Program-made: the position numbers and the translations under genes
Notes under the pieces: model-generated
The model's database searches: none
Told to the model about the DNA's origin: nothing
The model's input: only the letters and a program-made list of their open reading frames with translations
From: Nitrospirota bacterium
GTDB taxonomy: Bacteria; Nitrospirota; UBA9217
Assembly (NCBI GenBank): GCA_029858565.1
Contig: JAOUEV010000007.1
Coordinates: 44,569 to 108,568 of the forward strand
Direction of reading: 5' to 3'
DNA length: 64,000 nt
Part shown: positions 4,042 to 48,116 of the stretch, in pieces
Layout of the letters: every line of letters starts with the position of its first letter
Numbering within the stretch: the first letter of the stretch is position 1

Positions 4042-4392
4042 TCAATATTACATAACCTAACGGTGTACTGCCGGATGCGAGATCATAATTCTCGAAGGGA
4101 TCAGCGCAGCCGGATTCTGCACGCGATGATCACCACCCTGTTCGCGTCGGCGCATATCCTTACGCAGGACTGCTCATGCGTTTTCGTGAAGAAACCGCTC
4201 TAGCAGGCAGGGGTTATCCGTGCATATGCCGTATTGGTTCTAAGGTATTAATCATGCGCGTGCTTTTGGCATAAAAAAAGACGGTATAACAACAAGTTCC
4301 AGTGAATGTTTATGTGCTACAATAAATTCAGGACGGAACTTCGGCCGCTCGCCAAGCACGAGAGGTGTTTTCCCCTTTGCAAGGAGCAGGCC

Positions 4393-9618: not shown

Positions 9619-9656
9619 CAGCTCGGCTGAGCGTGACGAGCCGGAAGGAGGAAGAC

Positions 9657-12314: not shown

Positions 12315-12348
12315 CCGTGCTAAGACCGGGCGTGCCGGGGAGGATGCT

Positions 12349-13995: not shown

Positions 13996-14205
13996 TCCCC
14001 TCGGCCTTGACATGCACAGTATCGCAGCAGAACCAGCTTGCCCGTCGCCGGGAGGGGGTCCCGTCGATGCCGTCATTCGGATCGTTAACACAGCATTTTA
14101 TCAGCATCATCGTGGCCAACTCTTGCGCAGTATCTTTGATGACCTCATGTCGGGGAGGAAATTACGCAGGGGAATTCCGTGATCTGATGGGGAGAGGGAG
14201 AATGC

Positions 14206-14807
14206 ATGTTGGAAGAAACGGGAATAAATGCAGTGTTGGACAGGATCTTTTTTATCACCGAACGCGTTGTTGCTCTTGACAGTATCGACGATATCTTCGA
14301 TCACGTTGTCAGGACCGCCGTCCAGATCACCAACTCGGAGGCGGGTACGATACGGATGTTCGATCATGGTACAGGCCTGCTCAAGATCGTCAAGGGATAC
14401 GGCGTGTCGACCGGTTTCCTATCGCAGCCGGCCGTCAGGATCGGAGAGGGGATCGCCGGACGGGTGGTGCTCCAGGGACGTCCCTATGCAACGGTCAATA
14501 TCACAAAGACCCCCTATAGCGTGAACAAGGAATTCGCGAGACCGGAGGGGATCAAGAGCTTGATGAGCGTGCCGCTCAAATCGAGGGGTGTGACGCTGGG
14601 ATGCATCACGGTCTGCCGCAAGAAGGCTGACGGCTTTTCCGAGCAAGAGCTGATCATGCTCAGCATCTTTTCAGCGCAAGCTGCTGAAGCCATGGAGAAG
14701 ATGCAGCTGATAGTTTCGGTCTGCTCAGAAAAGCGGATAACGCCATGTATGCTGCCAAGCGAGCGGGAAAGAACCGTGTCCTGCCCTGCAGCGCCGGTGA
14801 GGGATAA
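14206..14807 (+). pseudogene. GAF-GGDEF gene with internal deletion and frameshift
   Basis: Intact GAF to ~14709; a different frame from 14709 reads DSFGLLRKADNAMYAAKRAGKNRV..* (TAA 14805-07), the C-terminal helix of a GGDEF domain; the catalytic core is missing. Confidence 0.8.
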
Positions 14808-14892
14808 TAGGCCATTGCAGCGGTCGTTGCATGTCGCGTGGCGCGAACCGCCGGCAGAAACTACTGCCGGCGGTTCTGTTTCAGATGACGGA

Positions 14893-15252
14893 TCAGGGCC
14901 TTGTGTCCATTCCGGGCTGTCCCGGCTGCTGACCGCGCGGACCGCTGCGGAACTGTCCACCTTGTCCGCCCATCGGACCCATGGGGGGCTCGGGCCGGCA
15001 CTTTCGGAGCTCGTCGGCGGTCTTGGATGCCTCGACACATGCCTTTTCCTGCGCCAATCGGGTGCTGCGCTCCTCGAGCATGGAGAGTACCCGTGCCTTC
15101 ATCTCTGCGAACTGCTCGGGTGTGATCTCCCTAGCGCCCTTGTCGTGCATCATGGGCGCGCTTCCTCCTCCGGCCCGCTGCTGTGCAGGAGCGGGTCCCG
15201 CAAGCATGACCACCAACAGCGCACTACAGACAACCATAACAAGATATCTCAT
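14893..15252 (-). CDS. Small exported hypothetical protein (helical core, G/P/M/Q-rich tails)
   Basis: AAGGAGG RBS; signal peptide ending APA; two Cys. Confidence 0.75.
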   Translation of the reverse strand: MRYLVMVVCSALLVVMLAGPAPAQQRAGGGSAPMMHDKGAREITPEQFAEMKARVLSMLEERSTRLAQEKACVEASKTADELRKCRPEPPMGPMGGQGGQFRSGPRGQQPGQPGMDTRP

Positions 15253-15557
15253 GATTCTTTCCTCCTTGCGTACCGGAAATGTTCAGATCCTCTGAAATAT
15301 ATGACACGGTGAACAAGTAAAAGTTAAAGTTGCCGTGTTGAAGTAACAGATCATCCCGTTCCAGCAAGTATACCCCAAAAATACCCTTTCGGCTTTCTTG
15401 TAATCCCCTGACGCCGCCGCTAATATGTGTTGCGACCATGGTCTTTTCCCGGTCGCGCGCTGGCAATCGTTGCGATATCTTGTAATGATCGTCCGGTCCT
15501 GTTCACGGCGAGCGATCATAGACGGGAAAAGCGGTTCTGAAAGCGAGCGAAGGCGAC

Positions 15558-18239
15558 ATGCGGAGCAAGCTGTCTGACGCGGTTCTTGATCCGATCTACC
15601 GAAAGTACACACTCCTGGCGCTCCTGGGATGGACCCTTCTTGTTGCGCTCCTCCTGGCCTACGTTATCATCGAGCATCGTCAGCAGGATATCTCTATTCT
15701 GGCCAATCAGGCCCGGGCGTCGTTCTCCAAGGACCTGCTCTACCGGCGCTGGAATGCGAGGCTCGGCGGCGTGTACGCGCCGGTTTCCGACGAGCTTCGT
15801 CCCAATCCCTATCTCGCACACGTTCCCGAACGGGACATCACAACGTCTTCGGGCAGGAAGCTTACGCTTGTCAATCCCTCCTACATGACCAGGCAGGTCC
15901 ATGAACTGCAGCTGCGGGACGACGGGACCGTCAGCCATATCACGAGCCTTCGCCCGCTTCGTCCGGAGAACGCGCCTGATCCCTGGGAAAGAAAAGCTCT
16001 GGAACAATTCAACCGCGGCGACAGGGAGGTTGTCTCAGTGGAGCAGGTGGGAGGGGAAGAACATCTTCGACTGATGCGGCCGCTCCGGACCGAGGCGCCC
16101 TGTCTTGCCTGCCATGCCCTCCAGGGCTACCGCGTGGGTGATGTCCTAGGCGGGATCAGCGTTACTCTGCCCGTCAAGGCCGGCTGGCTCCAGCATGACA
16201 AAGACCTCATCGAGCCGCTGATCGTCTTCGGCACCATGTGGCTGGCAGGCATCGCGGTCATCGCGGCCGGCTCGGCGAAATTGTCCCTCAGGTCCCGGGC
16301 GCTCCGTGACAGCGAGGTGCGGTATCGAACGTTGTTCGATACGATCCAGGACGGCATCTTCCAGGTCGATGAACAGCGGAACATCCGGTTCATCAATCCC
16401 GCGGGAGCCCGCATGCTCGGATACGGGCGTCCGGATGAAGCTGTCGGCGCTCCCCTGTCGCGTCACTGGCAGGATTATCAGGACTACGTATCCTATGAGA
16501 ATGACCTGGCAAAGCAGAAGCGGCTTGCGTTGCTCCTGGTCAATGCCGTCCGACTGGACGGAAGCAGGGCCATCTTCGAGCTAACCGCTCGGGCCCTGGA
16601 ATCGGCCGACGGTGCCGTGAGCGGCCAGGAGGGTATCTTCCGCGATATCACGGCCCGGATCGAAGCGGGGATCAAGGCGCAGGAGTTATCGAAGACCATG
16701 CGGGAGATCCTTGATCACGCGCCATTCGGGATCTACCTGGTCGGTGAAGGTGGCGTCATAGAGTATGTCAATCCTGCAATGCTCGCCATCGCCGGTGACA
16801 ATTATGAGCAGTTCACCGAGATGAACGTTCTGGAGTTCCCCAACTACCGGGCCATCGGTCTCTCCGACCGCATAGAGAAGGCATTTTCCGGAGAATACTT
16901 CCGGATGGAGCACATCGAGTATGTCTCCTATTTCGGGAACCGGCGCTCGATACGCAACTTTATCGGGATTCCGATCACTGAACGGGGCGGGCGGAAGGTG
17001 TTGATGATCGTCGAAGACATTACGCACCGGGTGACCGCCGAAGAACGGCATGAGAAGCTGCGCGAGCAGCTTGTCCAGGCCCAGAAGATAGAATCCCTTG
17101 GACGGCTTGCGGGGGGAGTTGCTCACGACTTCAACAACATCCTGTCCGCGATCATAGGCTACAGCGACCTTGCCCTTCGCAAGCTGCCTGAGGACGCCCC
17201 GGTCGCAAAGGATATCAGGATCATCCGCTCATCAGGCGAACGTGCGGCCCAGGTGGCCCATCAGCTCCTGGCATTCAGCCGGAAACAGGTGCTGGAGATG
17301 CGCATTGTGGATGTTAACGCGCTGGTTGCCAATCTGGCAAAGATGCTGTCCCGACTGATCGGAGAGGATATCACATTCCGGATCCTGAATGGGACCGCGG
17401 CCCTGAACGTTCACGCCGATCCCACTCAGGTGGAGCAGGTTATTATCAATCTGATGGTCAACGCCCGTGATGCCATGCCCAAGGGGGGAGAGTTGATCCT
17501 GGAGACCGGGTTAACAGAACTGACGGAAGCCGACGCACAGGAGCACCGGGAGATCGTTCCCGGCCGCTACGTACGAATAGCAGTCACGGATACAGGCGTG
17601 GGCATGCCGAAAGCGGTGCAGGATCGGATCTTCGAACCCTTCTTCACGACCAAGGAGATCGGCAAAGGGACCGGATTGGGTTTGGCAACGGTTTACGGCA
17701 TCGTGAAGCAGCATAAGGGATATATATATGTTGCCAGCGAACCGCATAAGGGATCGACATTCACGGTCTATCTGCCGACAGAGATGACTGCCGGTGTTTC
17801 CGGAGTACGCGAGGAACGGTCCGTAGAACTGCCCTGCGGCTCCGGCGCAGTGCTGGTGGTAGAGGACGATGAATCGGTACGCAGCCTGGTCGGAGAGATG
17901 ATCGGGACGCTCGGCTATACGCCGATCATCGCACGGGACAGTCTGGAGGCGCTTGAGATCGTGGAGAAGGACCTGCGCCCGATCGAACTGCTGCTGACCG
18001 ATGTGGTGATGCCGATCATGAACGGGAAGGACCTGTCCGACCTTATCCGGTCAAAGCGGCCGGACATCCGAACGGTCTTCATGTCAGGATACACCGAGGA
18101 AGTGATCAGCAGGCATGGAATGCTCGATCCCGGAATCCTGTTCATCCAGAAGCCGGTCACCCCGGCCAAGCTCGCGGCCAAGCTTTCCGAGGCTCTGCAG
18201 CCGGTGCCGAGGGACCAGCCTTCCCATGGATCTTCCTGA
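15558..18239 (+). CDS. Hybrid histidine kinase with DUF3365-like c-type heme sensor, 2 PAS, HisKA/HATPase, REC
   Basis: GGVY..PNPYL, NPSYMTRQ, SLRPLRPENAPDPWE and CLACH in the periplasmic part; AHDFNNIL; GTGLGL; VEDD..TDVVMP. Confidence 0.92.
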   Translation: MRSKLSDAVLDPIYRKYTLLALLGWTLLVALLLAYVIIEHRQQDISILANQARASFSKDLLYRRWNARLGGVYAPVSDELRPNPYLAHVPERDITTSSGRKLTLVNPSYMTRQVHELQLRDDGTVSHITSLRPLRPENAPDPWERKALEQFNRGDREVVSVEQVGGEEHLRLMRPLRTEAPCLACHALQGYRVGDVLGGISVTLPVKAGWLQHDKDLIEPLIVFGTMWLAGIAVIAAGSAKLSLRSRALRDSEVRYRTLFDTIQDGIFQVDEQRNIRFINPAGARMLGYGRPDEAVGAPLSRHWQDYQDYVSYENDLAKQKRLALLLVNAVRLDGSRAIFELTARALESADGAVSGQEGIFRDITARIEAGIKAQELSKTMREILDHAPFGIYLVGEGGVIEYVNPAMLAIAGDNYEQFTEMNVLEFPNYRAIGLSDRIEKAFSGEYFRMEHIEYVSYFGNRRSIRNFIGIPITERGGRKVLMIVEDITHRVTAEERHEKLREQLVQAQKIESLGRLAGGVAHDFNNILSAIIGYSDLALRKLPEDAPVAKDIRIIRSSGERAAQVAHQLLAFSRKQVLEMRIVDVNALVANLAKMLSRLIGEDITFRILNGTAALNVHADPTQVEQVIINLMVNARDAMPKGGELILETGLTELTEADAQEHREIVPGRYVRIAVTDTGVGMPKAVQDRIFEPFFTTKEIGKGTGLGLATVYGIVKQHKGYIYVASEPHKGSTFTVYLPTEMTAGVSGVREERSVELPCGSGAVLVVEDDESVRSLVGEMIGTLGYTPIIARDSLEALEIVEKDLRPIELLLTDVVMPIMNGKDLSDLIRSKRPDIRTVFMSGYTEEVISRHGMLDPGILFIQKPVTPAKLAAKLSEALQPVPRDQPSHGSS

Positions 18240-18403
18240 TCCCGCCGGATTCTTCATCCTGTTCGTTGCAGGTCATTTGTGTCGCTCCCATGGTTTGTCA
18301 GGTCGGGGAGAATACTTTGCCAGCCATGTCATGCTATGGCGGTGGGTGACAATAGAGATTAATAATTCGCGTATGAATTTTTTTTATGCTATTTTATCTT
18401 GAT

Positions 18404-18433
18404 TTTTGAATAGCATGTTGCTAGTATTCAAAA
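18404..18433. promoter_or_regulatory. Candidate operator (inverted repeat) upstream of the nuoEFG-like/cooS operon
   Basis: TTTTGAATA-12 nt-TATTCAAAA in an AT-rich intergenic region. Confidence 0.4.
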
Positions 18434-18668
18434 CTTGTCACATCCGCTTTTCAAGTTGCTAAATGTGAATTGAAGTAACATAAAATTCTATTTGGTAACA
18501 TAAATAAATTGCTCTTTAAATACAGCTAGTTATCATCGGTACGCGAATCTTCATTTTGTATTCATGTAGTCCGCACTTCATTCACCAGATCAAGGTTACC
18601 AGTTCCCCCTGATATTCCGAATGACGGGAAAGGTGTCTTTTCAGGGCAGAACGAGGGAGGTCTTAGCC

Positions 18669-19157
18669 GTGCTCGAACAAGCGGAAGTCAAATCCATCGA
18701 CGCTATTTTGAACGATGCCCAGGGCCAGCGGGGCATGCTGATCGCTGTTCTGCAGAAGGTGCAGGAAAAGGTCGGCTATCTTCCCGAGGACGCCATGCAG
18801 ATGATCTCGGACCGGCTCGAGCTGTCCTTTTCCCAGGTCTACGGTGTGGCGTCGTTCTATAAACATTTCCATTTCAAACCCCGAGGGAAGAAGATCGTCA
18901 AGGTCTGCATGGGCACGGCCTGCCACGTGCGCGGCGCCAAGGCCGTGCTGAACGAGCTCGAGTCCAAGCTCGGGGTCAAGGAAGGCGAGACCACCGCGGA
19001 CCGGTCCGTGACGCTCGAGACCGTGGGCTGCGTGGGCTGCTGCGCCCTGGCCCCGGTGCTCACGGTGAACGACCAGGACCTCTATGGCGAGCTGACGCCC
19101 AAAATGGTGGACGATATCATCGGAACGGTGAGGAGCGAACATGGAACTCACGTTTAA
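18669..19157 (+). CDS. NuoE/HydC-like [2Fe-2S] subunit
   Basis: VASFYKHF, CMGTACHVRG, CVGCC..APV; GTG after AGGGAGG. Confidence 0.92.
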   Translation: MLEQAEVKSIDAILNDAQGQRGMLIAVLQKVQEKVGYLPEDAMQMISDRLELSFSQVYGVASFYKHFHFKPRGKKIVKVCMGTACHVRGAKAVLNELESKLGVKEGETTADRSVTLETVGCVGCCALAPVLTVNDQDLYGELTPKMVDDIIGTVRSEHGTHV

Positions 19158-21039
19158 GCGGCTCGAGAATATTGCCGAACTCGCTGCCCTGCGCGAGCGG
19201 CTCAAAAAGGAACGCAAGGAGAGCGACGCCCACCGCGTGCGCGTCTGCTGCGGAACCGCCTGCCAGGCAACGGGAGCGAACAAGCTGGTCAGCAAGTTCG
19301 AGGACGAGGCGGCGAAAAAGGGCGTGAAGCTCGAGATCGTGAAGACCGGGTGCCAGGGGTTCTGCCAGCGCGGCCCGGTCATGATCCAGGAGCCCCAGGA
19401 GATCTTCTACCAGAAGGTGAAGGTCGACGACATCCCGAACCTGTTCTCCACTTCGCTGCTCCACGGCCAGCCCTACCGCAAACAGCTCTACCGTGAATTC
19501 CCGCTCTCGGAGCCCAATGCCGAGATGCAGGACATTCCTTTTTACAAGAAACAGAAGCGCGTAGCGCTCCACCGGAACGGGTTCGTGGACCCCTGCAACA
19601 TCTACGACGCCATCCGCGAGGACGGCTATGCCGCTCTGGCCAAGTGCCTGACCGACTACAAGCCTGATGAAGTGATCGATATCGTGAAAAAATCAGGTCT
19701 CCGCGGCCGCGGAGGCGCGGGCTTTCCCGCCGGTCTCAAATGGGAACATACCAAGAAGTCCGGCGCGAAGATCAAGGCCGTGGTCTGCAACGGCGACGAA
19801 GGCGACCCGGGCGCGTTCATGGACCGCGCGCTCATGGAAGGCGATCCCCATTCGGTGCTGGAAGGCATGATCATCAACGCCTATGCCATCGGCGCGCAGC
19901 ACGGCTACATCTATGTGCGTCATGAGTACCCCCTGGCCGTGAAGAACCTGGGCATTGCCATCAAGCAGGCCGAGGCAATGGGGCTTCTGGGCAAGAATAT
20001 TCTCGGCAGCGGTCTCGACTTTTCCATGGAGATCAAGGAAGGCGCCGGCGCATTCGTCTGCGGTGAATCGACTGCGCTTGTCGCATCCATCGAGGGCGAG
20101 CGCGGCATGCCGCGGCCCCGTCCGCCCAGGCTTTCGGAAGCTGCCGGCGGCCTCTGGAACATGCCCACGAACCTGAACAACGTCGAGACCTTTGCGAACG
20201 TCCCGACGATCATCGTGAAGGGCCTCGATTACTTTACCAAGATCGGCACGGAAAAATCCACGGGCACCAAGGTCTTCGCCCTGACCGGAAAGATCAAGAA
20301 CACGGGCCTCATCGAGGTCCCCATGGGCATCACGCTCCGGGAGATCATCTTCGATATCGGCGGCGGCATGCTGAACCCGGACAAGCAGTTCAAAGCGGTC
20401 CAGACCGGCGGCCCGTCAGGCGGCTGCATTCCTGCCCAGTTCCTCGACATGAAGGTGGACTTTGACACCCTTGCCGGCGTCGGCTCCATGATGGGTTCCG
20501 GCGGCATGGTGGTCCTGGACGAGGACGACTGCATGGTGGACGTGGCCAAGTTCTTCCTGTCCTTCACCAAGAGCGAGTCCTGCGGCAAATGCCCGCCCTG
20601 CCGCATCGGCACCTGGCAGATGTACGAGATGCTGGAAAAGATCACGACCGGCAAGGGCGAGAAGGGCGATATCGAGAAGCTCGAGAAGATGGGCAAGATG
20701 ATCGTCGCGGGCTCGCTCTGCGGCCTCGGGAACAGCGCGCCGAATCCCGTGCTCTCGACCATCCGCTATTTCCGCGAGGAGTACGAGGAGCACGTGAACG
20801 ACAAGTACTGCCGCGCCAAGCGGTGCCAGGGCTTGGGGACCTTCCGCATCCTGCCGGAGCATTGCATCCTCTGCGGCCTCTGCAAGCAGGCCTGCGCCTT
20901 CGACGCGGTCTCGGAACTCAGGGACAAGTACTTCATTGACCAGGACTACTGCACCTCGTGCAAGGCCTGCTACAGCGTCTGCCCCACGGAGGCGATCGTG
21001 ATCGAGAAGGGAGGGGCCCATGTCGCAGCTCGAAAGTAA
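19141..21039 (+). CDS. NuoF/HydB-like FMN/NAD(H)-binding subunit with N-terminal 2Fe-2S and C-terminal 2x[4Fe-4S]
   Basis: GLRGRGGAGFP, NGDEGDPGAFMDR, GAGAFVCGEST, GGPSGGC, ESCGKCPPCR, CILCGLC..C and CTSCKAC..CP. Confidence 0.95.
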   Translation: MELTFKRLENIAELAALRERLKKERKESDAHRVRVCCGTACQATGANKLVSKFEDEAAKKGVKLEIVKTGCQGFCQRGPVMIQEPQEIFYQKVKVDDIPNLFSTSLLHGQPYRKQLYREFPLSEPNAEMQDIPFYKKQKRVALHRNGFVDPCNIYDAIREDGYAALAKCLTDYKPDEVIDIVKKSGLRGRGGAGFPAGLKWEHTKKSGAKIKAVVCNGDEGDPGAFMDRALMEGDPHSVLEGMIINAYAIGAQHGYIYVRHEYPLAVKNLGIAIKQAEAMGLLGKNILGSGLDFSMEIKEGAGAFVCGESTALVASIEGERGMPRPRPPRLSEAAGGLWNMPTNLNNVETFANVPTIIVKGLDYFTKIGTEKSTGTKVFALTGKIKNTGLIEVPMGITLREIIFDIGGGMLNPDKQFKAVQTGGPSGGCIPAQFLDMKVDFDTLAGVGSMMGSGGMVVLDEDDCMVDVAKFFLSFTKSESCGKCPPCRIGTWQMYEMLEKITTGKGEKGDIEKLEKMGKMIVAGSLCGLGNSAPNPVLSTIRYFREEYEEHVNDKYCRAKRCQGLGTFRILPEHCILCGLCKQACAFDAVSELRDKYFIDQDYCTSCKACYSVCPTEAIVIEKGGAHVAARK

Positions 21040-21631
21040 GTGCCCCCTGACGGCAACGAAGCTGAAACTGGAGTTCTTCTACAACGATGACTCCAAGGAC
21101 GGCATGTGCTCCAAGTGCCATCCCTGCAAGCTCGGCATCTATGACGCCGTCAAGATCCTTGACGCGATCCAGGCGGGGAAGGGCCTCGATATCTATCCCG
21201 CCTTGCTCATGCGCATTGCCGTGGACGTGAAGGACGGCGGCATGTGCAAGAAGGGCAAGGACCGCGCGGACCTTCTCGCGGCCTTTTTAAAGGATTTCTC
21301 GGACGACCTGCAGCGCCACATCAAAGGCGTCTGCACCCATCAGGTCTGCACGCGGTTGATCAGCTATGAGATCGATCCCGCGAAATGCACCATGTGCGAC
21401 AAGTGCCGGGTCGTGTGCAAGGATTTCGCGATCGAAGGCCAGAAAGCGGTCTCGGGCAAGCTTGGATTCACGCCCTACCGGATCCGGCAGAAGCGCTGCA
21501 CCCACTGCGGGGAGTGCATCAAGGTTTGCCCCGAGGGCGCGGTGATCATTACCGAGGCTGCATTGGCAGGTGAGGAAAAGCCTGCCGCGTTGGTGAAGCA
21601 CACCGTGGGCACCTGCCCGCTGCATTATTAG
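21020..21631 (+). CDS. Fe-S protein: NuoF C-terminal 4Fe-4S domain plus 2x[4Fe-4S] ferredoxin
   Basis: CSKCHPC..MCKKG, CTMCDKC..C, CTHCGEC..CP. Confidence 0.85.
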   Translation: MSQLESKCPLTATKLKLEFFYNDDSKDGMCSKCHPCKLGIYDAVKILDAIQAGKGLDIYPALLMRIAVDVKDGGMCKKGKDRADLLAAFLKDFSDDLQRHIKGVCTHQVCTRLISYEIDPAKCTMCDKCRVVCKDFAIEGQKAVSGKLGFTPYRIRQKRCTHCGECIKVCPEGAVIITEAALAGEEKPAALVKHTVGTCPLHY

Positions 21632-21667
21632 TAGTACAGCAAGACCAAAAAGCGAGAACATTATTCC

Positions 21668-21739
21668 CGCACGAAGACACGAAGTAAGGAAAAGCACAAG
21701 ACAATGCAGATTTTCTTCGTGGATCCGTGGCTTCGTGCG
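21668..21739. repeat. Intergenic palindromic element built from CACGAAG units
   Basis: CGCACGAAGACACGAAG ... CTTCGTGGATCCGTGGCTTCGTGCG form an imperfect inverted repeat. Confidence 0.6.
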
Positions 21740-21804
21740 AGACAGGCAGTTTGTTGTTTATGGTTTTTAGTTAATGAATTGAACCTGAATTGCTGGAGGA
21801 TGCT

Positions 21805-23967
21805 ATGACGACCAAGATGGTGAACATGGAGATCGACGGGAAGGCCGTGCAGGTCCCCGAAGGCATGACCCTGGTGGACGCGGCGCAGACCGTGGGGATC
21901 CACATCCCGAACCTTTGCCATATCAAGGAACTTCGCGGTGTCGGCGCCTGCCGTATGTGCATGGTCGAGGTCGAGGGCCTGAAGACCCCGGTGACCGGTT
22001 GCACGACCCGCACCAAGGAAGGCATGAAGGTGCAGACCAAGACCCCGAAGGTCGAGGAGATCCGGAAGTTCGTGACCGATCTGGTCCTTTCCTTCCATCC
22101 TCTGGACTGCATGACCTGCCCCAAGGCGGGAGGCTGCGACCTTCAGCGGTATGCCGCTGACCTCAAGATCCAGGAGTCGTCCTTCGGCCGGAAAAGCTTC
22201 AACTATCCGCTCAACGACCGGAGCCCCTTCATCACCATCGACAACAACTACTGCATCCTTTGCGGACGCTGCGTCCGGGTCTGCAAGGAACAGGGCACGA
22301 ACGTTCTGGACTTCATGGGCCGCGGCATCACGACCAAGGTCTCGACCGCCCTGGACAAGCCGCTGCACGAGTCAGGCTGCACCTTCTGCGGCTCCTGCGT
22401 CGACGCCTGCCCGGTGAACACGATCATGGAGCGCGACCGGTGGCAGCACGGCCGTGAGTGGGACATGGAAAAGGCGGACTCGGTCTGCACGGCCTGCGGC
22501 TCCGGCTGCGCTACCATCGTCTCGAAGAAGAACGGCAAGATCGTGAAGGTCAATGCCAAGGAAGATACGGGCTATCTTTGCGCCATCGGACGCTTTGGTT
22601 TTGATGCGCTCACCGCTGCGAACCGCGTGACCTCGCCGATGATCCGGAAGGGCGGCAAGCTCAGCCCCGCGACCTGGGAAGAGGCGCTCAAGGTTGCTGC
22701 CGACGGCCTCAAGAAGGCAGGCGCAAACGCCGGATTCATCGCGTCCGGATCGCTCACGACGGAAGAAGCTTATGCGGTCCAGTCCCTGGCCCGCGATGTG
22801 GTGGGAAGCGCCAATGTGGATTCCACGGTCTCGGCCTATGCCGCAGGCCTGATCTCGGCGATCAGGACCATGTACGGCGACAACGGCACGGCGATGCTGT
22901 CCCAGGCCGATCTCCATTCCGCTGATTGCGTCGTCATGATCGGCGCTGATCCGTCGCAGAAGAAGCAGAAGCTCCAGGAAGCCGACGTGATGATCCGTCG
23001 CCGTGCACAGGCAGGCGCCAAGGTGATCGTGGTGAGCACCGAGAAAACGGACCTTGCAAATCATCAGAACGCGATCCTGCTGCAGGTGAAAGCGGGAGCC
23101 GACGCGGCGCTGCTGGCTGGTCTCATGAGCGCGGCTCTTGCCGAAGGCGCCCAGGCAACAGCAAAAGGGCTTGATGGTCTGAAAAAATCGCTGGTATCGG
23201 CCGACGAGGCAGCATCGACCTCCGGCGTCGCAGTTGAGCAGATCGCTGCAGCGGCCAAGGCATTTGCCGCTGCCAAGAACCCGGTTGTCGTGATCGGCAC
23301 CGGCGTGAGCATGAACGAGGATGCCTCGCTTCAGGCGTTGAACCTGGCGGCGATGAAGAACGCCGGTGTCATGGCGCTCCTGCTTGAAGCGAACGGCCTC
23401 GGCGTGGTATCTGCAGGATGTTTGTCTGACCTCGGCGCCGGATTCACCAAGATCAAGAAGGCTGGCAAGGGCTACAGCGAGATGAAGTCCGGCATGAAGG
23501 CTCTCTATCTCGCCGGAAATATGCCTGAGGTGAATTTTAAGTCGGACTTCATGGTCGTCCAGACCAGCCATATAACCGCTCTGGCGGAAAAAGCCGATGT
23601 GGTGCTTCCGATGACCGCGCTGTACGAGCGCGCGGGAAGCATCGTTGATATGTATGGAAAGCAGAAATCCTTTGCAGCCGCGCAGGACGCGGCAGGGGTT
23701 GCCAAGGACGGAGCGGACATCGCTGCCGAGCTTTCGCTTGTGATCAGCAAGACCAAGGGCTTCAAAGTGAAGGATGTTGCCGCCGCTATCAAGAAGTTCA
23801 AGGCAGGCAAGCTTGCTGAAGCGTCATTCAAGCCGGTGAGTGCGAAGGCAGGGAAGTCGGCCGCGCTCTCCGCATCGGAACTGCTCGCGGGAATGAACAA
23901 GGGCATGCTCGCCAATTCCGCGGTGGCCAAGGTGGCTGCGCCGCAGGGAGCGCCGGTTTCGAAGTAA
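21805..23967 (+). CDS. NuoG/FdhA-like polyferredoxin subunit (molybdopterin-oxidoreductase fold, apparently without Mo ligand)
   Basis: LCH..GACRMC (2Fe-2S), HPLDCMTC, CILCGRCVRVC, CTFCGSCVDAC, CTACGSGC..LC; no Cys/Sec-His at the FDH site (NVDSTVSAY); no H-cluster motifs. Confidence 0.88.
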   Translation: MTTKMVNMEIDGKAVQVPEGMTLVDAAQTVGIHIPNLCHIKELRGVGACRMCMVEVEGLKTPVTGCTTRTKEGMKVQTKTPKVEEIRKFVTDLVLSFHPLDCMTCPKAGGCDLQRYAADLKIQESSFGRKSFNYPLNDRSPFITIDNNYCILCGRCVRVCKEQGTNVLDFMGRGITTKVSTALDKPLHESGCTFCGSCVDACPVNTIMERDRWQHGREWDMEKADSVCTACGSGCATIVSKKNGKIVKVNAKEDTGYLCAIGRFGFDALTAANRVTSPMIRKGGKLSPATWEEALKVAADGLKKAGANAGFIASGSLTTEEAYAVQSLARDVVGSANVDSTVSAYAAGLISAIRTMYGDNGTAMLSQADLHSADCVVMIGADPSQKKQKLQEADVMIRRRAQAGAKVIVVSTEKTDLANHQNAILLQVKAGADAALLAGLMSAALAEGAQATAKGLDGLKKSLVSADEAASTSGVAVEQIAAAAKAFAAAKNPVVVIGTGVSMNEDASLQALNLAAMKNAGVMALLLEANGLGVVSAGCLSDLGAGFTKIKKAGKGYSEMKSGMKALYLAGNMPEVNFKSDFMVVQTSHITALAEKADVVLPMTALYERAGSIVDMYGKQKSFAAAQDAAGVAKDGADIAAELSLVISKTKGFKVKDVAAAIKKFKAGKLAEASFKPVSAKAGKSAALSASELLAGMNKGMLANSAVAKVAAPQGAPVSK

Positions 23968-24088
23968 CACGACAGCGTGTCCTGTACACTTTTTGCTCCG
24001 GCAGGTCATTGCCGGTTGAGATACATCTTCAGGTGGTAACACGCGGGGGCGTCAGTCTCCCGGTAAGGAAAGGAGCTTTGGTACGATC

Positions 24089-26071
24089 ATGAGAGAAGAC
24101 CAGAAATCCGTTGACCCGGCAGCGCAGGTAATGCTGAAAGTGGCCGGCTTGAAAAAAATCGAAACATCCTTCGAACGCGCGGAGAGGCTCAAACCCTGTC
24201 CGATCGGACATCAGGGCGCATGCTGTAAAATGTGCCACATGGGCCCCTGCCGTCTTGTGGGCAAGGAAGAAGAGGCCGAGGGCGTGTGCGGAGCAACCCT
24301 GCCGGTCGTGACAGCGCGGAACTTCGCGCGAATGGTTGCCGCGGGCACTGCTGCCCATTCTGACCATGCCCGCGACCTGGCGAACACGCTGCTCGCCGTG
24401 GGCCGCGGCGAGGCCAAGGACTTCCAGGTCAAGGACGTGCGCAAGCTGAACCGCGTTGCCGGCTACCTCGGCATCAATGTCGAGGGAAAAGCGGTCAACA
24501 AGGTGGCCGAGGAGGTGGCGCTCAAATTCCTGGAGCAGTTCGGCCAGCAGCGGGGCACGCTTGCCTATCTCGGACGGGCGCCCAAGAAACGGCAGGAGAT
24601 CTGGAAAAAGCTGGGGCTCGCACCGCGGGCAATTGACCGCGAGTGCGTTGAGATGCTGCACCGCACGACCATGGGTGTGGACCAGGAGATGGAGAATATC
24701 ATGCTCGGCGCCATGCGCGCGGCCCTGGCAGACGGCTGGGGCGGTTCCATGATGGGCACGGACATTTCCGACATCCTCTTCGGCACCCCGAAGCCGGTCC
24801 GGTCCAATGCCAGCCTTGACGTGTTCATGGAAGATCATGTGAACCTGGTGGTGCACGGCCATGAACCTTCCTTTGCCGAGATGCTCGTCATCGCATCAGA
24901 GGACCCGGAGATCGAGGCATACGCCAAGTCCAAGGGCGCCAAGGGCGTGAAGCTCGTGGGCATGTGCTGCACTGCGAACGAGATCCTGATTCGCCACGGC
25001 ATTCCGACGGCGGGAGGGTTCCTGCAGCAGGAACTCGGTATCCTCACGGGTATGGTCGAGGCCATGGTCGTAGACGTCCAGTGCATCATGCCGGCTATCG
25101 GCGAACTGTCAAAGAAGTATCATACCAAGATTGTTACGACCACGAACAAAGGCAAGATGAAGGATGCCATCCACATCGAGTATGACGAGCATCATGCGCT
25201 CGATCTTGCCAAGAAGGTCGTACGTCTTGCCATCGACAATTTCCCGAACCGGAAAAAGGATATGGTGTCGCCCCCTCATATCAAGCCTGCTGACATGATC
25301 GCCGGTTTCTCGCATGAATATATCGAATACATGCAGGGCGGTCTCTATCGCGGGTCCTTCCGGCCGCTGAACGACGCGATCATCGCCGGCCGTGTGCGCG
25401 GCATTGTGGGGCTGGCAGGCTGCAACAACCCCAGGATCAGCCAGGACAGTATGCACAACTTCCTGACGCGGGAACTGATCAAGAACGATGTGCTGGTGGT
25501 CCAGACGGGCTGCTCTGCCATGGCTTCCGCCAAGGCCGGGTACATGACACCGGAGAACGCCATGGAGAATGCCGGCAAGGGTCTACGCGAGGTCTGTGAA
25601 GCCATCGGTATCCCGCCGGTGCTCCACATGGGCTCCTGCGTGGACAATTCGCGCATTCTGACCGTGGCTTCCGCCATTGCCGAGGAAGGCGGTCTCGGAG
25701 ACGATATCGGCGGTCTTCCGGCTGTGGGTATAGCTCCGGAGTGGATGAGCGAAAAGGCAATCGCCATCGGCACCTACTTCGTGGCATCCGGTGTTCCGAT
25801 CATCTTCGGCGCGGGTTCACCGGTCAGCGCCAGCAAATCGATGAAGGACCTGATGGAAAATAAGTGGTGGGACCTGGTGAACGCGGGCTTCTACTTTGAA
25901 GAGGACCCGGGAAAGATCCTGGAACTGGCACTTAAAATGATCGATGCGGCTCGTGAGAAGCTCAAGATCAGGAAATACGAGCCCGGTCGATTCGGCACTG
26001 AGCGCGTACTGATGGATATGGCGGCGCGGCGCGCGGCCTCATTTGCCACGCCTCACGGTGAAGTCGTGTAG
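24089..26071 (+). CDS. cooS: Anaerobic Ni-Fe carbon monoxide dehydrogenase catalytic subunit
   Basis: CPIG..CCKMCHMGPC (D/B clusters); AAHSDHAR; C-cluster ligands in HGH, GMCC, VQC, GCNN, TGC and GSCVD; EKA. Confidence 0.97.
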   Translation: MREDQKSVDPAAQVMLKVAGLKKIETSFERAERLKPCPIGHQGACCKMCHMGPCRLVGKEEEAEGVCGATLPVVTARNFARMVAAGTAAHSDHARDLANTLLAVGRGEAKDFQVKDVRKLNRVAGYLGINVEGKAVNKVAEEVALKFLEQFGQQRGTLAYLGRAPKKRQEIWKKLGLAPRAIDRECVEMLHRTTMGVDQEMENIMLGAMRAALADGWGGSMMGTDISDILFGTPKPVRSNASLDVFMEDHVNLVVHGHEPSFAEMLVIASEDPEIEAYAKSKGAKGVKLVGMCCTANEILIRHGIPTAGGFLQQELGILTGMVEAMVVDVQCIMPAIGELSKKYHTKIVTTTNKGKMKDAIHIEYDEHHALDLAKKVVRLAIDNFPNRKKDMVSPPHIKPADMIAGFSHEYIEYMQGGLYRGSFRPLNDAIIAGRVRGIVGLAGCNNPRISQDSMHNFLTRELIKNDVLVVQTGCSAMASAKAGYMTPENAMENAGKGLREVCEAIGIPPVLHMGSCVDNSRILTVASAIAEEGGLGDDIGGLPAVGIAPEWMSEKAIAIGTYFVASGVPIIFGAGSPVSASKSMKDLMENKWWDLVNAGFYFEEDPGKILELALKMIDAAREKLKIRKYEPGRFGTERVLMDMAARRAASFATPHGEVV

Positions 26072-26103
26072 TCTGATAAAATATCTCAGGTAGTTTAGGT
26101 GCT

Positions 26104-26137
26104 AAGGCCGGAGGGAGATTCCCTCCGGCCTTTTTTT
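26104..26137 (+). terminator. Rho-independent terminator after cooS
   Basis: AAGGCCGGAGGGA-gat-TCCCTCCGGCCTT followed by a T-run. Confidence 0.9.
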
Positions 26138-26322
26138 CACTGCTCCCTGGAATCTGTGGGGGCTGTCGGAGCGGTAACAGCTTATTGCCTGTACGGGAAG
26201 TGTTTTCTCGGAGTTCTCGCCCGCATTCGCCGGTTTTATTACCGTATATGTTGTGGTTTTCACTCTTCACGTCCACAAGATGCGGTATCTTGTTGATAAA
26301 TTTCAAATAAATTATAATTATC

Positions 26323-26368
26323 TTGACAACCGAATTGTTTTAAGTATCATAGTAACTATACTTACTAT
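26323..26368 (+). promoter_or_regulatory. sigma70 promoter and palindromic operator upstream of HTH-pilMNOPQ
   Basis: TTGACA(26323)-16 nt-TATCAT(26345); overlapping ATAGTAA-N6-TTACTAT (26349-68). Confidence 0.55.
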
Positions 26369-26402
26369 AACCAGATACACTAGTACGATCGGAGAGGCTG
26401 CG

Positions 26403-26600
26403 ATGGTTAAGCGCAAAAACCCGAAAAAGTATAAGACTAAGGAGATCTGCGATAGATTTGATATCTCCCGTGCAACGCTTTTTCGCTGGGAGAGCGAGGG
26501 ATTGCTTACTGACGTCGAGCGCGACTGGCGCGGCTGGCGGGTGTACGGTGACATGAATCTGCGCGAGATCGAGAAGATCATCAGGAATAAGACCGCGTAA
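26403..26600 (+). CDS. Small MerR/BldC-like helix-turn-helix protein
   Basis: YKTKEICDRFDISRATLFRWESEGLL..RDWRGWRVY; GGAGAGG RBS. Confidence 0.85.
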   Translation: MVKRKNPKKYKTKEICDRFDISRATLFRWESEGLLTDVERDWRGWRVYGDMNLREIEKIIRNKTA

Positions 26601-26633
26601 CGACCGGAGAACGATTCCCCACAGGGAGACCGC

Positions 26634-27686
26634 ATGCTGTTCGGAAAAAAAATAGAACCAATCGCCCTTGATATCGGATCAACGCTGATCAAGCTTGTGC
26701 AGCTCAAGGGGACCGGCAAGAGCTTCAGTCTGAGCAAGTTCGGGATGATCCCGCTTCCCCCCGAGGTGATCGTGGAAGGTGCGGTGATGGACGCGAACCG
26801 CGTTTCCGAAGCGATCAAGGAGCTTATCGCCGCCCAGAAGATCAAGACCAAGGAGGTCGTACTCTCCGTATCGGGAAGTTCGGTGATCATCAAACGTGTT
26901 TCCATCGCCGACATGACCGATGAGGAGCTCAGCGAGTCCATTAAATGGGAAGCGGAGCAGTATATTCCCTTTTCCATCGATGATGTGAACGTCGATTTCC
27001 AGAAACTTGGTCCCGGAGCCGCTGAAGGGCAGGCGGACATCCTCCTGGTCGCCGTCAAGAAGGACAAAATCAATGATTATGTGAACCTGGTGAAGGACGC
27101 TGGGCTTGAGCCGGTTGTCGTGGACGTGGACGCGTTCGCGCTTGCCAATATGTACGAGATGAACTATGAGGTGGAAGGCGGCATCACGGCGCTGTTGAAC
27201 ATCGGGGCCTCGGTGATGAACATCAATGTGCTGAAGGACGGCGGATCCATCTTTACCCGAGACATCACTGTCGGCGGCAACCGGTATATCGAAGCGCTGC
27301 AGCGGGACGCCGGATTGACCTATGAGGACGCCGAAAAGGTGAAACGCGGCGAGCCGGTCGACGGGGGAGATAAGGACCAGCTGACCGGGATCGTTTCGAC
27401 GGTCACCGAGGATATCGTCGGCGAGATCCAGCGCTCATTCGATTTCTTCCGGTCCACGACCGGGAGCGAGGCGGTAAGCAGAGTCCTGATATGCGGCGGG
27501 TGCGCCAAGATACCCGAGTTCAGCAAGACCTTGTCCAGCCGGCTGGAAATCCCGGTGGACGTCATCAATCCGTTCAAGAACATCAAAGTCGATCCGAAGC
27601 ACTTTGACGCCGGTTTTATCAGTGAGTCGGCTCCTCTGGCGGCTATAGCAGTAGGTCTTGCGATGAGGAGGCCAGGCGATCGATGA
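26634..27686 (+). CDS. pilM: Type IV pilus assembly protein PilM
   Basis: LDIGS, EAEQYIPF, VDVDAFAL, NIGA, GG..AK, AVGLA; actin-like; first gene of pilMNOPQ. Confidence 0.95.
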   Translation: MLFGKKIEPIALDIGSTLIKLVQLKGTGKSFSLSKFGMIPLPPEVIVEGAVMDANRVSEAIKELIAAQKIKTKEVVLSVSGSSVIIKRVSIADMTDEELSESIKWEAEQYIPFSIDDVNVDFQKLGPGAAEGQADILLVAVKKDKINDYVNLVKDAGLEPVVVDVDAFALANMYEMNYEVEGGITALLNIGASVMNINVLKDGGSIFTRDITVGGNRYIEALQRDAGLTYEDAEKVKRGEPVDGGDKDQLTGIVSTVTEDIVGEIQRSFDFFRSTTGSEAVSRVLICGGCAKIPEFSKTLSSRLEIPVDVINPFKNIKVDPKHFDAGFISESAPLAAIAVGLAMRRPGDR

Positions 27687-28231
27687 TTAAGATCAACTTA
27701 TTGCCGACAAAGCGCAAGCCCTCGCGCAAGATAACCGATCTGCAGAAACAGGCGGTGCTCGGCGGCCTGATCCTGGGCGGCGTCATCACCGGCATGGTTC
27801 TCTACACGGCAAGCTTGAACCAGAAGATCGCACAGCGCCAGCAGAAACGCGATGCCACCAAGACGAAAATCGCGCAGCAGGAGACCATGCTGAAAGAGGT
27901 CAAGAACGTCGAAGACGAGGAAAAGAAGGTCACGGAAAAGATCAACGTCATCGAACAGCTCAAGAAGAACCAGCAGGGGCCGGTACGGATGCTCGATGAG
28001 ATCAGCAGGGCCGTTCCGACCGGCATTGGAATAACCTCAATCACGGAAGCCGCCGGCAGGATCAATATCAACGGCGATGCCTTTACGAATGAGGACATTG
28101 TGAAGTTCGTGGAGAACCTGAAGGCTTCACCATTTTTTCAGGAAATCTATCTTCTGGAGTCAATGCTTGCGAAAGAGAAGGAAACGGAGATCTACCGTTT
28201 CAAGCTCCAGATGAAGTACAAGGGGGTCTGA
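27683..28231 (+). CDS. pilN: Type IV pilus assembly protein PilN
   Basis: MIKINLLP N-terminus, TM helix, coiled coil; synteny. Confidence 0.93.
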   Translation: MIKINLLPTKRKPSRKITDLQKQAVLGGLILGGVITGMVLYTASLNQKIAQRQQKRDATKTKIAQQETMLKEVKNVEDEEKKVTEKINVIEQLKKNQQGPVRMLDEISRAVPTGIGITSITEAAGRININGDAFTNEDIVKFVENLKASPFFQEIYLLESMLAKEKETEIYRFKLQMKYKGV

Positions 28232-28863
28232 TGAAGACGCCGGCGATCCTCGAAAAGATCCAGAAGATCCCGACCAAGACCCGTGCCATCGCATTTGGCG
28301 TGGTTACCGCATTGGTGACGATCCTGTTCATCTGGCAGGTCCACATTCCCAAGACGAGCGAGATCGGCAAGCTGGACACGGAGATCGCGGGCCTGGAAGC
28401 GACAATGCGCGACAATGACGCGAAGATCAAGAAGCTTGACATGTTGAAGGCCAAGGTCAAGGAGCTCCAGGAAAAGTTGAAGGTCCTGACCAAGCAGCTG
28501 CCACCTGAGTCGGAAGTGTCCGGCTTGCTGCGTGAGATCCAGAATCTGGTGAACAAGGCCGGCCTCACGCTCAAACTGTGGAAGCCCGATAAGAGAAAGC
28601 CCGGATGCAGCGGTATGTGTGAAGAGATACCAATCTCGCTGAAGCTCCTCGGCGGGTATCATAACGTCGCAATGTTCTACGACAGCGTCAGCAAGCTGAC
28701 CCGCATCGTGAACATTGCTAATGTCAAAATGGGCGGCGCCAAGGTGGGGAACAGCGGACTTATGGAGATCGAGATCGACTGTACCGCAATGACCTTCGCC
28801 GCGACGGAGAAAAAGATGGAAGAGAAGACAGCGGTGCCGGTAGCCGTTAAACAGGTTAAATAG
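28231..28863 (+). CDS. pilO: Type IV pilus assembly protein PilO
   Basis: QLP..EV..LL, GGYH..F...VSKL.RIV; synteny. Confidence 0.93.
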   Translation: MKTPAILEKIQKIPTKTRAIAFGVVTALVTILFIWQVHIPKTSEIGKLDTEIAGLEATMRDNDAKIKKLDMLKAKVKELQEKLKVLTKQLPPESEVSGLLREIQNLVNKAGLTLKLWKPDKRKPGCSGMCEEIPISLKLLGGYHNVAMFYDSVSKLTRIVNIANVKMGGAKVGNSGLMEIEIDCTAMTFAATEKKMEEKTAVPVAVKQVK

Positions 28864-28864
28864 C

Positions 28865-29413
28865 ATGCGAAATAAAATCTCATTCTTGATTTCCATGGTG
28901 ATTGCCGGGATGCTGCTTGGGGGCTGCTCAGACTCAGCTAAACCTGCGCCACCGGCACCGGTCGCTCCCACGCCGATAGCGACGACGCCGACCGTCACGG
29001 CGCCGGTCTCGGCAGCGACCGTGACCAGTGCGCCGTCATCAACGGTCGCAGCTCCGGTCGCCTATGCCTACAATCCACAGGGTCGACGGGATCCCTTTAC
29101 TCCCCTTATTCTCAAGGAGGAGAAAAAGGCGTTTATCGGCGCGAGAACGCCGCTGGAACGGTATGCTATCCATGAGTTCAAGCTGGCAGGGATCGTATGG
29201 GGCGGTCTCGGGTATCATGCCATGCTCGAGGGGCCCGATGGCAAGGGGTATTTCGTGAAGGAGAAAACGATCATCGGTCCGAACCGCGGTATTGTCAGGA
29301 GGATCACCCAGAGCAATATGATCGTTGAAGAGCGGTATCGCGATCCGTCCGGGGAAATGAAAAAGAAGGAAATCGTCATCGAGCTTCGCAAATCACAGGA
29401 GGGGACACCATGA
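28865..29413 (+). CDS. pilP: Type IV pilus lipoprotein PilP
   Basis: Lipobox LGGC, RDPF, PLERY, GIVW; synteny. Confidence 0.92.
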   Translation: MRNKISFLISMVIAGMLLGGCSDSAKPAPPAPVAPTPIATTPTVTAPVSAATVTSAPSSTVAAPVAYAYNPQGRRDPFTPLILKEEKKAFIGARTPLERYAIHEFKLAGIVWGGLGYHAMLEGPDGKGYFVKEKTIIGPNRGIVRRITQSNMIVEERYRDPSGEMKKKEIVIELRKSQEGTP

Positions 29414-43290: not shown

Positions 43291-43296
43291 TACAGT

Positions 43297-43893: not shown

Positions 43894-43911
43894 GAACAGG
43901 GGACACTCAGC

Positions 43912-45978: not shown

Positions 45979-46001
45979 GTTCGCCAGACAACGACGACAG
46001 G

Positions 46002-46045
46002 AAAAGGCCGGAGCGGTCGATCAAACTGCTCCGGCCTTTTTTTTT
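46002..46045 (+). terminator. Rho-independent terminator
   Basis: AAAAGGCCGGAGCGGT-loop-ACTGCTCCGGCCTTTTTTTTT. Confidence 0.9.
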
Positions 46046-46186
46046 CAGCAGACGGTAGTCACAACCGGCATCCCTGCGAAAAGGCGCTTTATTTATTCCG
46101 ATCAATGTTGGATAATGGCGGCATTACGGTGCCGGGCCGGTTCTGTGATGACGACAGCAGACGGATCACGGTTGAAGGAGGGAAGT

Positions 46187-47974: not shown

Positions 47975-47981
47975 CCGGGAA

Positions 47982-48075
47982 CACCCACCTCCCCTGACCC
48001 CTCCTTGCCAAGGAGGGGGATTCTGTTCCTGCTCTTGAGCAGCGTTATCTTCCTTCTTGGCAAGGGGGGTGGGTT
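47982..48075. repeat. REP-like palindromic pair
   Basis: CCCCTCCTTGCCAAGGAGGGG followed by a degenerate inverted copy TTCCTTCTTGGCAAGGGGGG. Confidence 0.6.
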
Positions 48076-48116
48076 CGTCGGATACAATTGGATATAATTA
48101 TGAGGAAATCAAACTC

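Follow-up and report, generated by a model that had tools for sequence, protein, structure and literature searches.

Sequence analyses of a 64,000-nucleotide (nt) stretch of a Nitrospirota genome (GCA_029858565.1, contig JAOUEV010000007.1, positions 44,569 to 108,568), referred to below as the window, identified a group of five genes, E, F, X, G and cooS, located at 18669-26071 of the + strand. The group is a real feature that is conserved across relatives, and all sequence criteria that were tested place it within the Bfu family. The five products probably form one soluble, bifurcating carbon monoxide dehydrogenase (CODH) complex linked to both nicotinamide adenine dinucleotide (NAD(H)) and ferredoxin, a reading based on sequence comparison and on analogy with characterized enzymes; the module made up of E, F, X and G would probably link the acetyl-CoA pathway to NADH and ferredoxin. 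We infer that the products belong to a single complex, that NAD(H) and ferredoxin are used jointly, that the coupling is by bifurcation and that CooS, the catalytic subunit, docks on the acetyl-CoA synthase (ACS) protein AcsB.

The open reading frames (ORFs) and the Pfam and NCBIfam profile searches agreed on the gene order E-F-X-G-cooS, and a 13-pair stem was found behind cooS; a previous first-pass annotation of the same DNA had likewise described five co-oriented genes closed by one strong terminator. E and F overlap by 17 nt and F and X by 20 nt. A sequence scan found no terminator-like or promoter-like site in the gap between X and G (158-173 nt) or in that between G and cooS (121 nt). 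The gene content (ORFs, Pfam and NCBIfam) also agreed with the annotation in that no membrane subunit, hydrogenase, acsB, cooC or cooF is encoded within the five-gene operon, and no nuoA-D or nuoH-N genes were found near it by ORF and Pfam analysis.

F has the long HydB architecture, with a flavin mononucleotide (FMN)/NAD(H) domain, an N3-type [4Fe-4S] cluster and a C-terminal ferredoxin domain. The Pfam domains were an N-terminal 2Fe-2S domain (cluster B5), Complex1_51K, SLBB, NADH_4Fe-4S (B1) and a C-terminal 2x[4Fe-4S] domain (B3/B4). This architecture and the AFM, F(VCGE) and GGPSG residues had been read from the sequence at first pass, and all are present (A225-F226-M227, F305-V-C307-G-E309 and G423-G-P-S-G-G428). 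The best solved relative of F was HydB of the bifurcating enzyme NiFe-HydABCSL (PDB 7t2r_B, E 1e-223). The PDB matches that followed were HydB, NfnB, WorB and StnB, all from other bifurcating enzymes, whereas NuoF of complex I and FdsB, which does not bifurcate, ranked far lower. Against the NuoF equivalog model of NCBIfam F scored 474.9, below the cut-off of 558.65, and the complex-I-type NuoF of the genome is a separate, distant paralogue in a tree of 23 proteins.

The Bfu family is described as having an invariant BfuBC core that carries FMN, clusters B1-B5 and cluster C1 (Schut 2022, PMC9304861). According to the same source, the penta-coordinate B2 cluster of A. mobile has the ligands C438, C476, H525, C531 and C536; the second position is Thr in about two thirds of BfuB proteins, which makes Thr the majority state, and of 1558 BfuB proteins only 8 lack the His, which is reported there as absent from non-bifurcating homologues. 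In a HMMER alignment these ligands corresponded to C464, T502, H551, C557 and C562 of F, which are kept in 55, 54, 55, 55 and 55, respectively, of 55 F homologues from related loci. The B1 ligands (C481, C484, C487, C527) and the B3/B4 ligands (C575-C614) are kept in all 55, and the B5 ligands (C36, C41, C71, C75) in 54. Taken over the whole module, each ligand of B1, B3, B4, B5, C1 and A1-A5 is shared by 51-59 of 53-59 homologues. The affinity of F to bifurcating HydB/BfuB proteins, which had been proposed from the motifs, was thus upheld: every tested sequence hallmark of the Bfu (HydABC-type) BfuBC core is present, the B2 histidine included.

E exceeded the cut-off of a NuoE-type NCBIfam model (NF005722, 154 bits versus 141), and 58-59 of 59 homologues share the residues that ligate its [2Fe-2S] cluster C1 (Cys80, 85, 121 and 125). 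The GTG codon at 18669 is the likelier start, because most E homologues are 161-162 residues long; the Shine-Dalgarno sequence GAGGGAGG stands before it. The alternative ATG at 18621 would give 178 residues.

In G, Pfam identified the domains Fer2_4, NADH-G_4Fe-4S_3, Fer4, Molybdop_Fe4S4 and Molybdopterin, and five Fe-S motifs could be assigned, A1-A5 (a 2Fe-2S, a His-ligated 4Fe-4S, two 4Fe-4S and Molybdop_Fe4S4). Each of the 20 residues that ligate these clusters is shared by 51-53 of 53 homologues. G scored below the cut-off of TIGR01973 (362.4 versus 470.05 bits), and the NiFe-HydA subunit of PDB 7t2r (chain A) matched residues 9-628 (E 8e-70). The start of G may be the ATG at 21805. A role of G as a formate dehydrogenase was considered and rejected: no Molydop_binding domain was found by Pfam, the MopB part has no conserved Cys or Sec among the 53 homologues, and the formate dehydrogenase alpha score was below threshold. 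G was read as a scaffold and wire, because its MopB part lacks a conserved cysteine. In the classification of Schut 2022 (PMC9304861), Type 3 enzymes combine a BfuA that carries clusters A3 and A5 with a separate catalytic subunit; in the operon the A1-A5 motifs are all present and CooS is the only catalytic subunit encoded.

The first-pass annotation had recorded X as an extra Fe-S subunit. Its Fe-S nature was confirmed and its identity could be refined. BLASTP aligned X to F residues 461-625 at 25% identity and E 1e-17, and its PDB sequence matches were the C-termini of NfnB and HydB proteins (E 8e-21 to 1e-14). In 52 homologues the B1-like ligands C30, C33, C36 and C76 and the B2-like residues H100, C105 and C110 are invariant, as are the eight Cys of two [4Fe-4S] motifs, C123-C133 and C160-C170. 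C8, the counterpart of C464 in F, is kept in at least 90% of them, and Gln51 takes the position of Thr502 of F (Cys/Thr). An AlphaFold2 model of X (pLDDT 78.4, pTM 0.67) was compared with solved structures by Foldseek, and the 11 best matches were B subunits of bifurcating enzymes (TMq 0.51-0.72). Judged from its ligands, its alignment to F and the Foldseek matches of the predicted structure, X is a flavin-less paralogue of the C-terminal half of BfuB, the ferredoxin arm, with B1-B4-like ligands.

X-type genes with at least 33% identity lay between F and G in 36 of 40 metagenome loci, the other 4 being on contigs shorter than 1.3 kb; of these 40 loci, 13 contain cooS and 7 contain acsB. The weaker metagenome matches to X were the C-termini of ordinary HydB genes. 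A Protein Atlas search with X gave, as leads only, clusters of proteins of about 200 residues with PF10589 and Fer4, commonest in Nitrospirota, Bacillota and Chloroflexota. A prediction of the CooS-X complex from two alignments scored 0.06 (mark 0.32); the CooS dimer and G were outside the model, and the result is evidence neither way.

CooS had as best PDB matches 6t7j, 6ytt, 9fzy and 6vwy. The residues that we take, by CODH-II motifs, to be ligands of the D-cluster (C37, C45), the B-cluster (C46, C49, C54, C67) and the C-cluster (H258, C293/294, C332, C445, C475, C517) are invariant in 52-53 sequences. The nearest solved relatives are the Thermococcus CODH, the CODH/ACS subunit of Clostridium autoethanogenum (E 1e-177) and the Desulfovibrio CODH, enzymes that a 2026 survey places in CODH clade E (PMC13056359). 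A 34-residue C-terminal tail (residues 627-660) extends beyond the TIGR01702 model and is conserved in 52 Nitrospirota homologues, with Y630, G633, F635, L641, M644, R647 and R648 invariant; the tail may be a docking element.

The conservation of the operon was analyzed in the best 80 related genome loci. At least part of the module was found beside cooS in 69 of them, 55 being complete and 14 cut by contig ends but consistent, and a chance association could be excluded on the basis of this synteny; 11 loci had no module beside cooS. In the 55 complete loci E, F, X, G and cooS lie on one strand, in the order EFXG-S in 21 and S-EFXG in 34. The synteny of the five-gene set is thus conserved across relatives, as first proposed, and occurs in two gene orders. 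Among the 26 loci with 81-92% CooS identity, 25 show all or part of the order E-F-X-G-S of the window, and acsB was found within the flanks of none. Among the 54 loci with 63-67% CooS identity, acsB is directly upstream of cooS in 45; in seven of the remaining nine, the available upstream sequence is shorter than 1 kb. The typical operon of these more distant, Thermodesulfovibrionia-like relatives reads (cooC)-acsE-acsD-acsC-acsB-cooS-E-F-X-G.

A tree of 23 NuoF-type proteins was calculated. It comprised the F of the window, cooS-linked F proteins chosen for spread (7 of the 26 close ones and 10 of the distant ones, which number about 29) and five paralogues from the genome. The 18 sampled cooS-linked proteins formed one clade (100/100), apart from the five NuoF-like paralogues. 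The gene orders of the distant loci and the single F clade indicate that, most likely, an ancestral acs-cooS-EFXG operon was split in the lineage of the window and EFXG stayed with cooS. Some cooS-linked F genes are longer (about 775-784 codons in L029, L031, L039, L042 and others), with a C-terminal extension of about 150 residues; this form was found in 13 of 55 homologues, all of the acs-linked type, and the extension in L029 reads like a CBS-pair (nucleotide-sensing) domain.

Several loci weigh against the assignment of the module to CooS. L028 (CooS identity 81%, 10 kb available on both sides) has no module, and in L067, L071, L065 and L032 acs and cooS are followed by unrelated genes. 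In L043 and L034 a G-like gene lies upstream of acsE. On the metagenome contig L104 (1-7702) acsB is followed by E-F-F-X-G with no cooS between, an arrangement from which the module must be regarded as separable from cooS. Among 151 evenly sampled Nitrospirota genomes (CooS threshold E <= 1e-50, counts read from result tables), 14 of the 88 acsB-bearing genomes had no CooS at this threshold.

L104, L043 and L034, together with the loci that lack a module beside cooS, speak for a different explanation, in which E-F-X-G is a separate enzyme that travels with Wood-Ljungdahl genes and CooS uses free ferredoxin as in acetogens. The separate enzyme could be an NADH:ferredoxin-type module for another step or for balancing redox pools. 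In the literature, NuoE/F/G-type clusters of orthologous groups (COGs) are noted, lumped and unanalyzed, in a general Wood-Ljungdahl context group (Inoue 2019), and papers on Nitrospirota treat cooS/acsA as ferredoxin-linked with Rnf; Rnf is also encoded by this genome. We consider a separate enzyme quite unlikely, since the module contains no catalytic site (the MopB part of G has no conserved Cys or Molydop_binding domain and X has no flavin domain) and a BfuABC core needs a third substrate. Furthermore, after the operon was split the module stayed with cooS and not with acsBCDE.

In L028, the region upstream of cooS (5679-9597) carries a GltD/NfnB-like Fer4_20 + Pyr_redox_2 oxidoreductase, a TnpB/Cas12f-like gene and a DUF3786 gene. 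Ten of the 14 acsB-bearing genomes that lack CooS belong to family f15 (including G043, G053 and G077) and make up all of its sampled genomes; their ACS has no obvious CODH partner. In three f15 genomes that were checked only a 540-residue HCP-like Prismane gene was found.

The link of CooS to ACS was examined in the whole genome (3.9 Mb in 144 contigs, estimated 100% complete). CooS is its only CODH. The first-pass annotation had viewed CooS as the catalytic head, possibly feeding a Wood-Ljungdahl pathway encoded elsewhere, and had suggested a search for acsB and cooC. Both were found on another contig, C7, in a cluster of a cooC-like gene, DUF2520, acsE, acsD, acsC, acsB, a fused NuoE/F-like gene, fdhA and the formyltetrahydrofolate synthetase gene FTHFS, without cooS. 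The suggestion therefore stood with regard to the pathway, and the role of CooS could be made more specific: most likely CooS is the AcsA of CODH/ACS rather than a free-standing CO oxidizer, because it is the only CODH of the genome and its orthologues are located inside acs operons, after acsB. AcsB also keeps the N-terminal CODH-contact domain PF18537.

Against a CODH/ACS complex stands the fact that acsB and cooS are unlinked in this genome; its existence in this organism is suggested by the gene order of relatives. In the 151-genome sample, CooS was found in 75 genomes (as a single match in 54) and acsB in 88. Outside the family of the window, the two genes lay within 3 kb of each other in 30 of the 40 genomes that have both, and within the family cooS was adjacent to acsB in none of 34 genomes.

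This separation is what would be expected of a stand-alone Codh-Bfu that oxidizes free, possibly trace, CO for energy or detoxification, with no docking to ACS in this organism. Use of very low CO has been proposed for Codh-Bfu (Schut 2022, PMC9304861), and the operon has its own terminator. Such a function appears unlikely in a genome estimated to be 100% complete that encodes AcsB, AcsC, AcsD, AcsE and CooC and has a single CooS: an ACS without any CODH would have no source of CO, and neither the contact domain retained by AcsB nor the position of the orthologues directly after acsB in 45 of the 54 more distant loci is in agreement with it.

The acs cluster itself contains a further gene set of interest (C7, locus L084, 6442-11967, minus strand). 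Directly 3' of acsB lies a fused NuoE/NuoF-like gene of the HydB type, coding for 774 residues, followed by a formate dehydrogenase alpha gene with one in-frame TGA, probably a selenocysteine codon, and then FTHFS. With these genes the acs cluster seems to carry a second Bfu-type module, directed at formate.

The first-pass annotation had stated that CODH-linked versions of HydABC-type modules were predicted from genomes and had seen little biochemistry. This agrees with the literature: Codh-Bfu was predicted from 4 sequences, described as found 'only in Firmicutes' and assigned to Type 2 (Schut 2022, PMC9304861), and CodhABCSF, in which CooF is seen as a WorS-like wire, 'has yet to be purified' (Feng 2025, PMC12318220). 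Both the published Codh-Bfu and the operon of the window combine a BfuABC-type NAD(H)/ferredoxin core and a CooS gene in one cluster. BfuB of Codh-Bfu is placed nearest to a NiFe/Codh/Fdh group, clade 49 holding NiFe-Bfu, and F is closest to NiFe-HydB. The published BfuA is described as lacking A3 and A5, whereas G has all five cluster motifs and is Type 3-like; the published system has a CooF wire, whereas here no CooF-type gene is present and X stands in its place. The CODH genes of the published system lie between bfuB and bfuA and were reported from Firmicutes, whereas the present operon is from Nitrospirota and the cluster of its relatives is located in the acs operon. Judged by gene content, the system is best called a Type 3-like, X-containing, CODH/ACS-associated Codh-Bfu; it was set apart from the published type because neither the short BfuA nor CooF was found. 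No description of this Nitrospirota cluster was found in the literature searched, the members given in the supplement of Schut 2022 being outside that search.

Among solved structures, F was closest to the bifurcating NiFe-HydABCSL of Acetomicrobium mobile, an enzyme that has been purified (PDB 7T2R/7T30, PMC8880783); the match to G was full-length. The same architecture is described for this enzyme: its A subunit is catalytically empty and connects the BC core with a catalytic module that is separate. This module is the NiFe hydrogenase HydSL, whereas here it would be CooS; the third substrate is H2 at -414 mV instead of CO at -520 mV, and NiFe-HydABCSL has no X-like subunit.

With the CODH/ACS of acetogens (Clostridium autoethanogenum, 6YTT; Moorella, 1MJG) the system shares the acsB-cooS order seen in relatives of the operon, and CooS is closest to clade-E enzymes, that of C. 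autoethanogenum among them. The acetogen enzymes use free ferredoxin and no dedicated flavoprotein module, whereas here a Bfu-type module is co-encoded and CooS has an extra tail. The CooS-CooF-FNOR clusters (Geobacter sulfurreducens GSU2095-2098) likewise link a soluble CODH to a pyridine-nucleotide oxidoreductase. Their FNOR, however, is a single FAD/NAD(P) disulfide-reductase-type protein with CooF as the wire; these clusters have no HydBC-type core and no NuoG-like subunit, and they include cooC and a regulator. Finally, the domains of E, F and G are homologous to those of the NuoEFG N-module of complex I, and E exceeds one NCBIfam cut-off. Complex I is described as lacking clusters B2-B5, whereas F has them; F and G score below the NuoF and NuoG cut-offs, and no membrane genes are adjacent.

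A route for electrons through the proposed complex was drawn by analogy with NiFe-HydABCSL (Feng 2022, PMC8880783). Electrons from the C-cluster of CooS would pass to its B- and D-clusters and from there, perhaps with X in between, into the chain of Fe-S clusters in G. From G they would reach cluster B1 and the FMN of F, where NAD+ would be reduced, and a branch made of C1, B2, B3 and B4 would serve ferredoxin at the C-terminal [4Fe-4S] arm of F.

The tabulated potentials are -520 mV for CO2/CO, -280 mV for NAD and -500 mV for ferredoxin (Schut 2022, Table 1, PMC9304861). From these values, the mixed NAD/ferredoxin couple was computed to be at about -390 mV, with -25 kJ/mol for CO oxidation, and to be in equilibrium with CO2/CO at a CO/CO2 ratio of about 4e-5. 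Such a ratio would plausibly suit a CODH from which ACS draws off the CO through a tunnel. About 20-40 kJ/mol is released in the ACS step. It is reasonable to regard the reduction of CO2 by NADH and reduced ferredoxin, and the reverse process in acetyl-CoA oxidation, as thermodynamically feasible, because CO is consumed by ACS in this exergonic step.

The same calculations bear on whether the complex bifurcates at all. CO at standard potential can reduce both NAD+ and ferredoxin uncoupled, and bifurcation is not thermodynamically required; moreover, the Bfu cofactor set predicts bifurcation by analogy with characterized members alone. The complex could be real and non-bifurcating: a CODH that simply reduces NAD+, or a ferredoxin wire that works independently of NADH, with clusters B2-B5 as mere electron conduits or storage. 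CO oxidation is exergonic with either acceptor alone (ΔG of -46 kJ/mol with NAD and -3.9 kJ/mol with ferredoxin), and other NAD(P)H-linked CODH clusters, those of the CooS-CooF-FNOR type, exist. This version is very unlikely, given that all sites separating bifurcating from non-bifurcating homologues, the B2 histidine among them, are present and conserved in the operon.

A more far-reaching form of the bifurcating reading may be put forward tentatively, with the balance of probability against it: CODH/ACS itself could be coupled to NAD(H) and ferredoxin, as a confurcating or bifurcating enzyme, so that CO2 is converted to ACS-bound CO with one NADH and reduced ferredoxin rather than with ferredoxin as the sole donor, and X replaces CooF. 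X, as a flavin-less arm with B1/B2/B3/B4 sites, would then be a new type of connector or a second ferredoxin port. The reaction would be feasible with ACS holding CO about 4-5 orders of magnitude below CO2.

To our knowledge, all characterized CODH/ACS enzymes use ferredoxin. A CODH wired to a HydABC-type NADH/ferredoxin core would, if true, be a new coupling site. The demand of the carbonyl branch for low-potential electrons would be halved, estimates of ATP yield would change for Nitrospirota that are widespread in groundwater and sediment, and in the reverse direction acetyl-CoA oxidation would yield NADH and reduced ferredoxin. The operon would also offer a conserved target of five subunits, with AcsB as a sixth partner, for work on the Codh-Bfu class and on the function of the flavin-less BfuB-like subunit.

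Other genes of the genome code for DsrAB, a NiFeSe hydrogenase and Rnf, and neither an FeFe hydrogenase nor NarG was found in it; this content fits a sulfur-cycling anaerobe that runs the Wood-Ljungdahl pathway in either direction. Four further NuoE/NuoF-type gene sets were found, on contigs C41, C138, C142 and C14, two of them with an F of HydB length; behind the C41 set lies an fdhA-like gene that contains an in-frame TGA. Bfu-like modules are unusually abundant in this genome.

Table 1. Features of the five-gene operon and its borders (positions in the window; aa, amino acids).
Feature	Position	Strand	Description
AT-rich intergenic leader, presumed promoter region	18240..18668	+	sequence read
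E, BfuC/HydC/NuoE-like [2Fe-2S] subunit	18669..19157	+	162 aa from GTG; PF01257 2Fe-2S_thioredx, E 2e-51
F, BfuB/HydB-type flavoprotein	19141..21039	+	632 aa; Pfam, PDB alignment
X, flavin-less Fe-S subunit	21020..21631	+	203 aa; partial NADH_4Fe-4S + Fer4
G, BfuA/NuoG-like subunit	21805..23967	+	720 aa from ATG 21805; 725 aa from TTG 21790
S, CooS/AcsA, Ni,Fe-CODH catalytic subunit	24089..26071	+	660 aa; TIGR01702, 604.7 bits versus cut-off 478
Intrinsic terminator, 3' end of operon	26104-26132 (feature row 26104..26140)	+	13-pair stem with 9 G-C, 3-nt loop, T-run

The 380 nt upstream of the operon (18240-18620) contained no sigma-70-like site on the + strand in a promoter scan and no sigma-54 -24/-12 element by eye, and an Rfam scan of 18000-26700 at E <= 0.1 was negative. 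Of the sigma-70-like sites in the region, the best one (TTGACA-16-TATCAT, 11 of 12 matches) was found within 26293-26600 on the + strand, before an ORF of 65 codons (26403-26600). Pfam gave no match for this ORF, which stands immediately upstream of pilMNOPQ (26634-31806).

On the 5' side, the operon is preceded by a run of signaling genes on the + strand (9633-18239), which code for a GGDEF protein, a GAF protein and two hybrid histidine kinases of 893 residues each, one with a dCache_3 and the other with a Tll0287-like domain. That the Tll0287-like/PAS kinase (15558-18239) and the GAF protein could be dedicated sensors was considered and rejected, as they are beside the cluster in 0 of 80 related loci; none of the signaling genes is kept beside the cluster in these loci. 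Further upstream (4306-9618, + strand) the window encodes a multihaem cytochrome of 1770 residues, in which MtrC/MtrF-like domains and domains of the cytochrome c7/c3 type were recognized. A set of genes for gluconeogenesis and anaplerosis is located at 41833-51264 on the + strand and consists of a two-subunit pyruvate carboxylase, a GTP-dependent phosphoenolpyruvate carboxykinase (GTP-PEPCK) and a class V fructose-1,6-bisphosphatase (PF01950).

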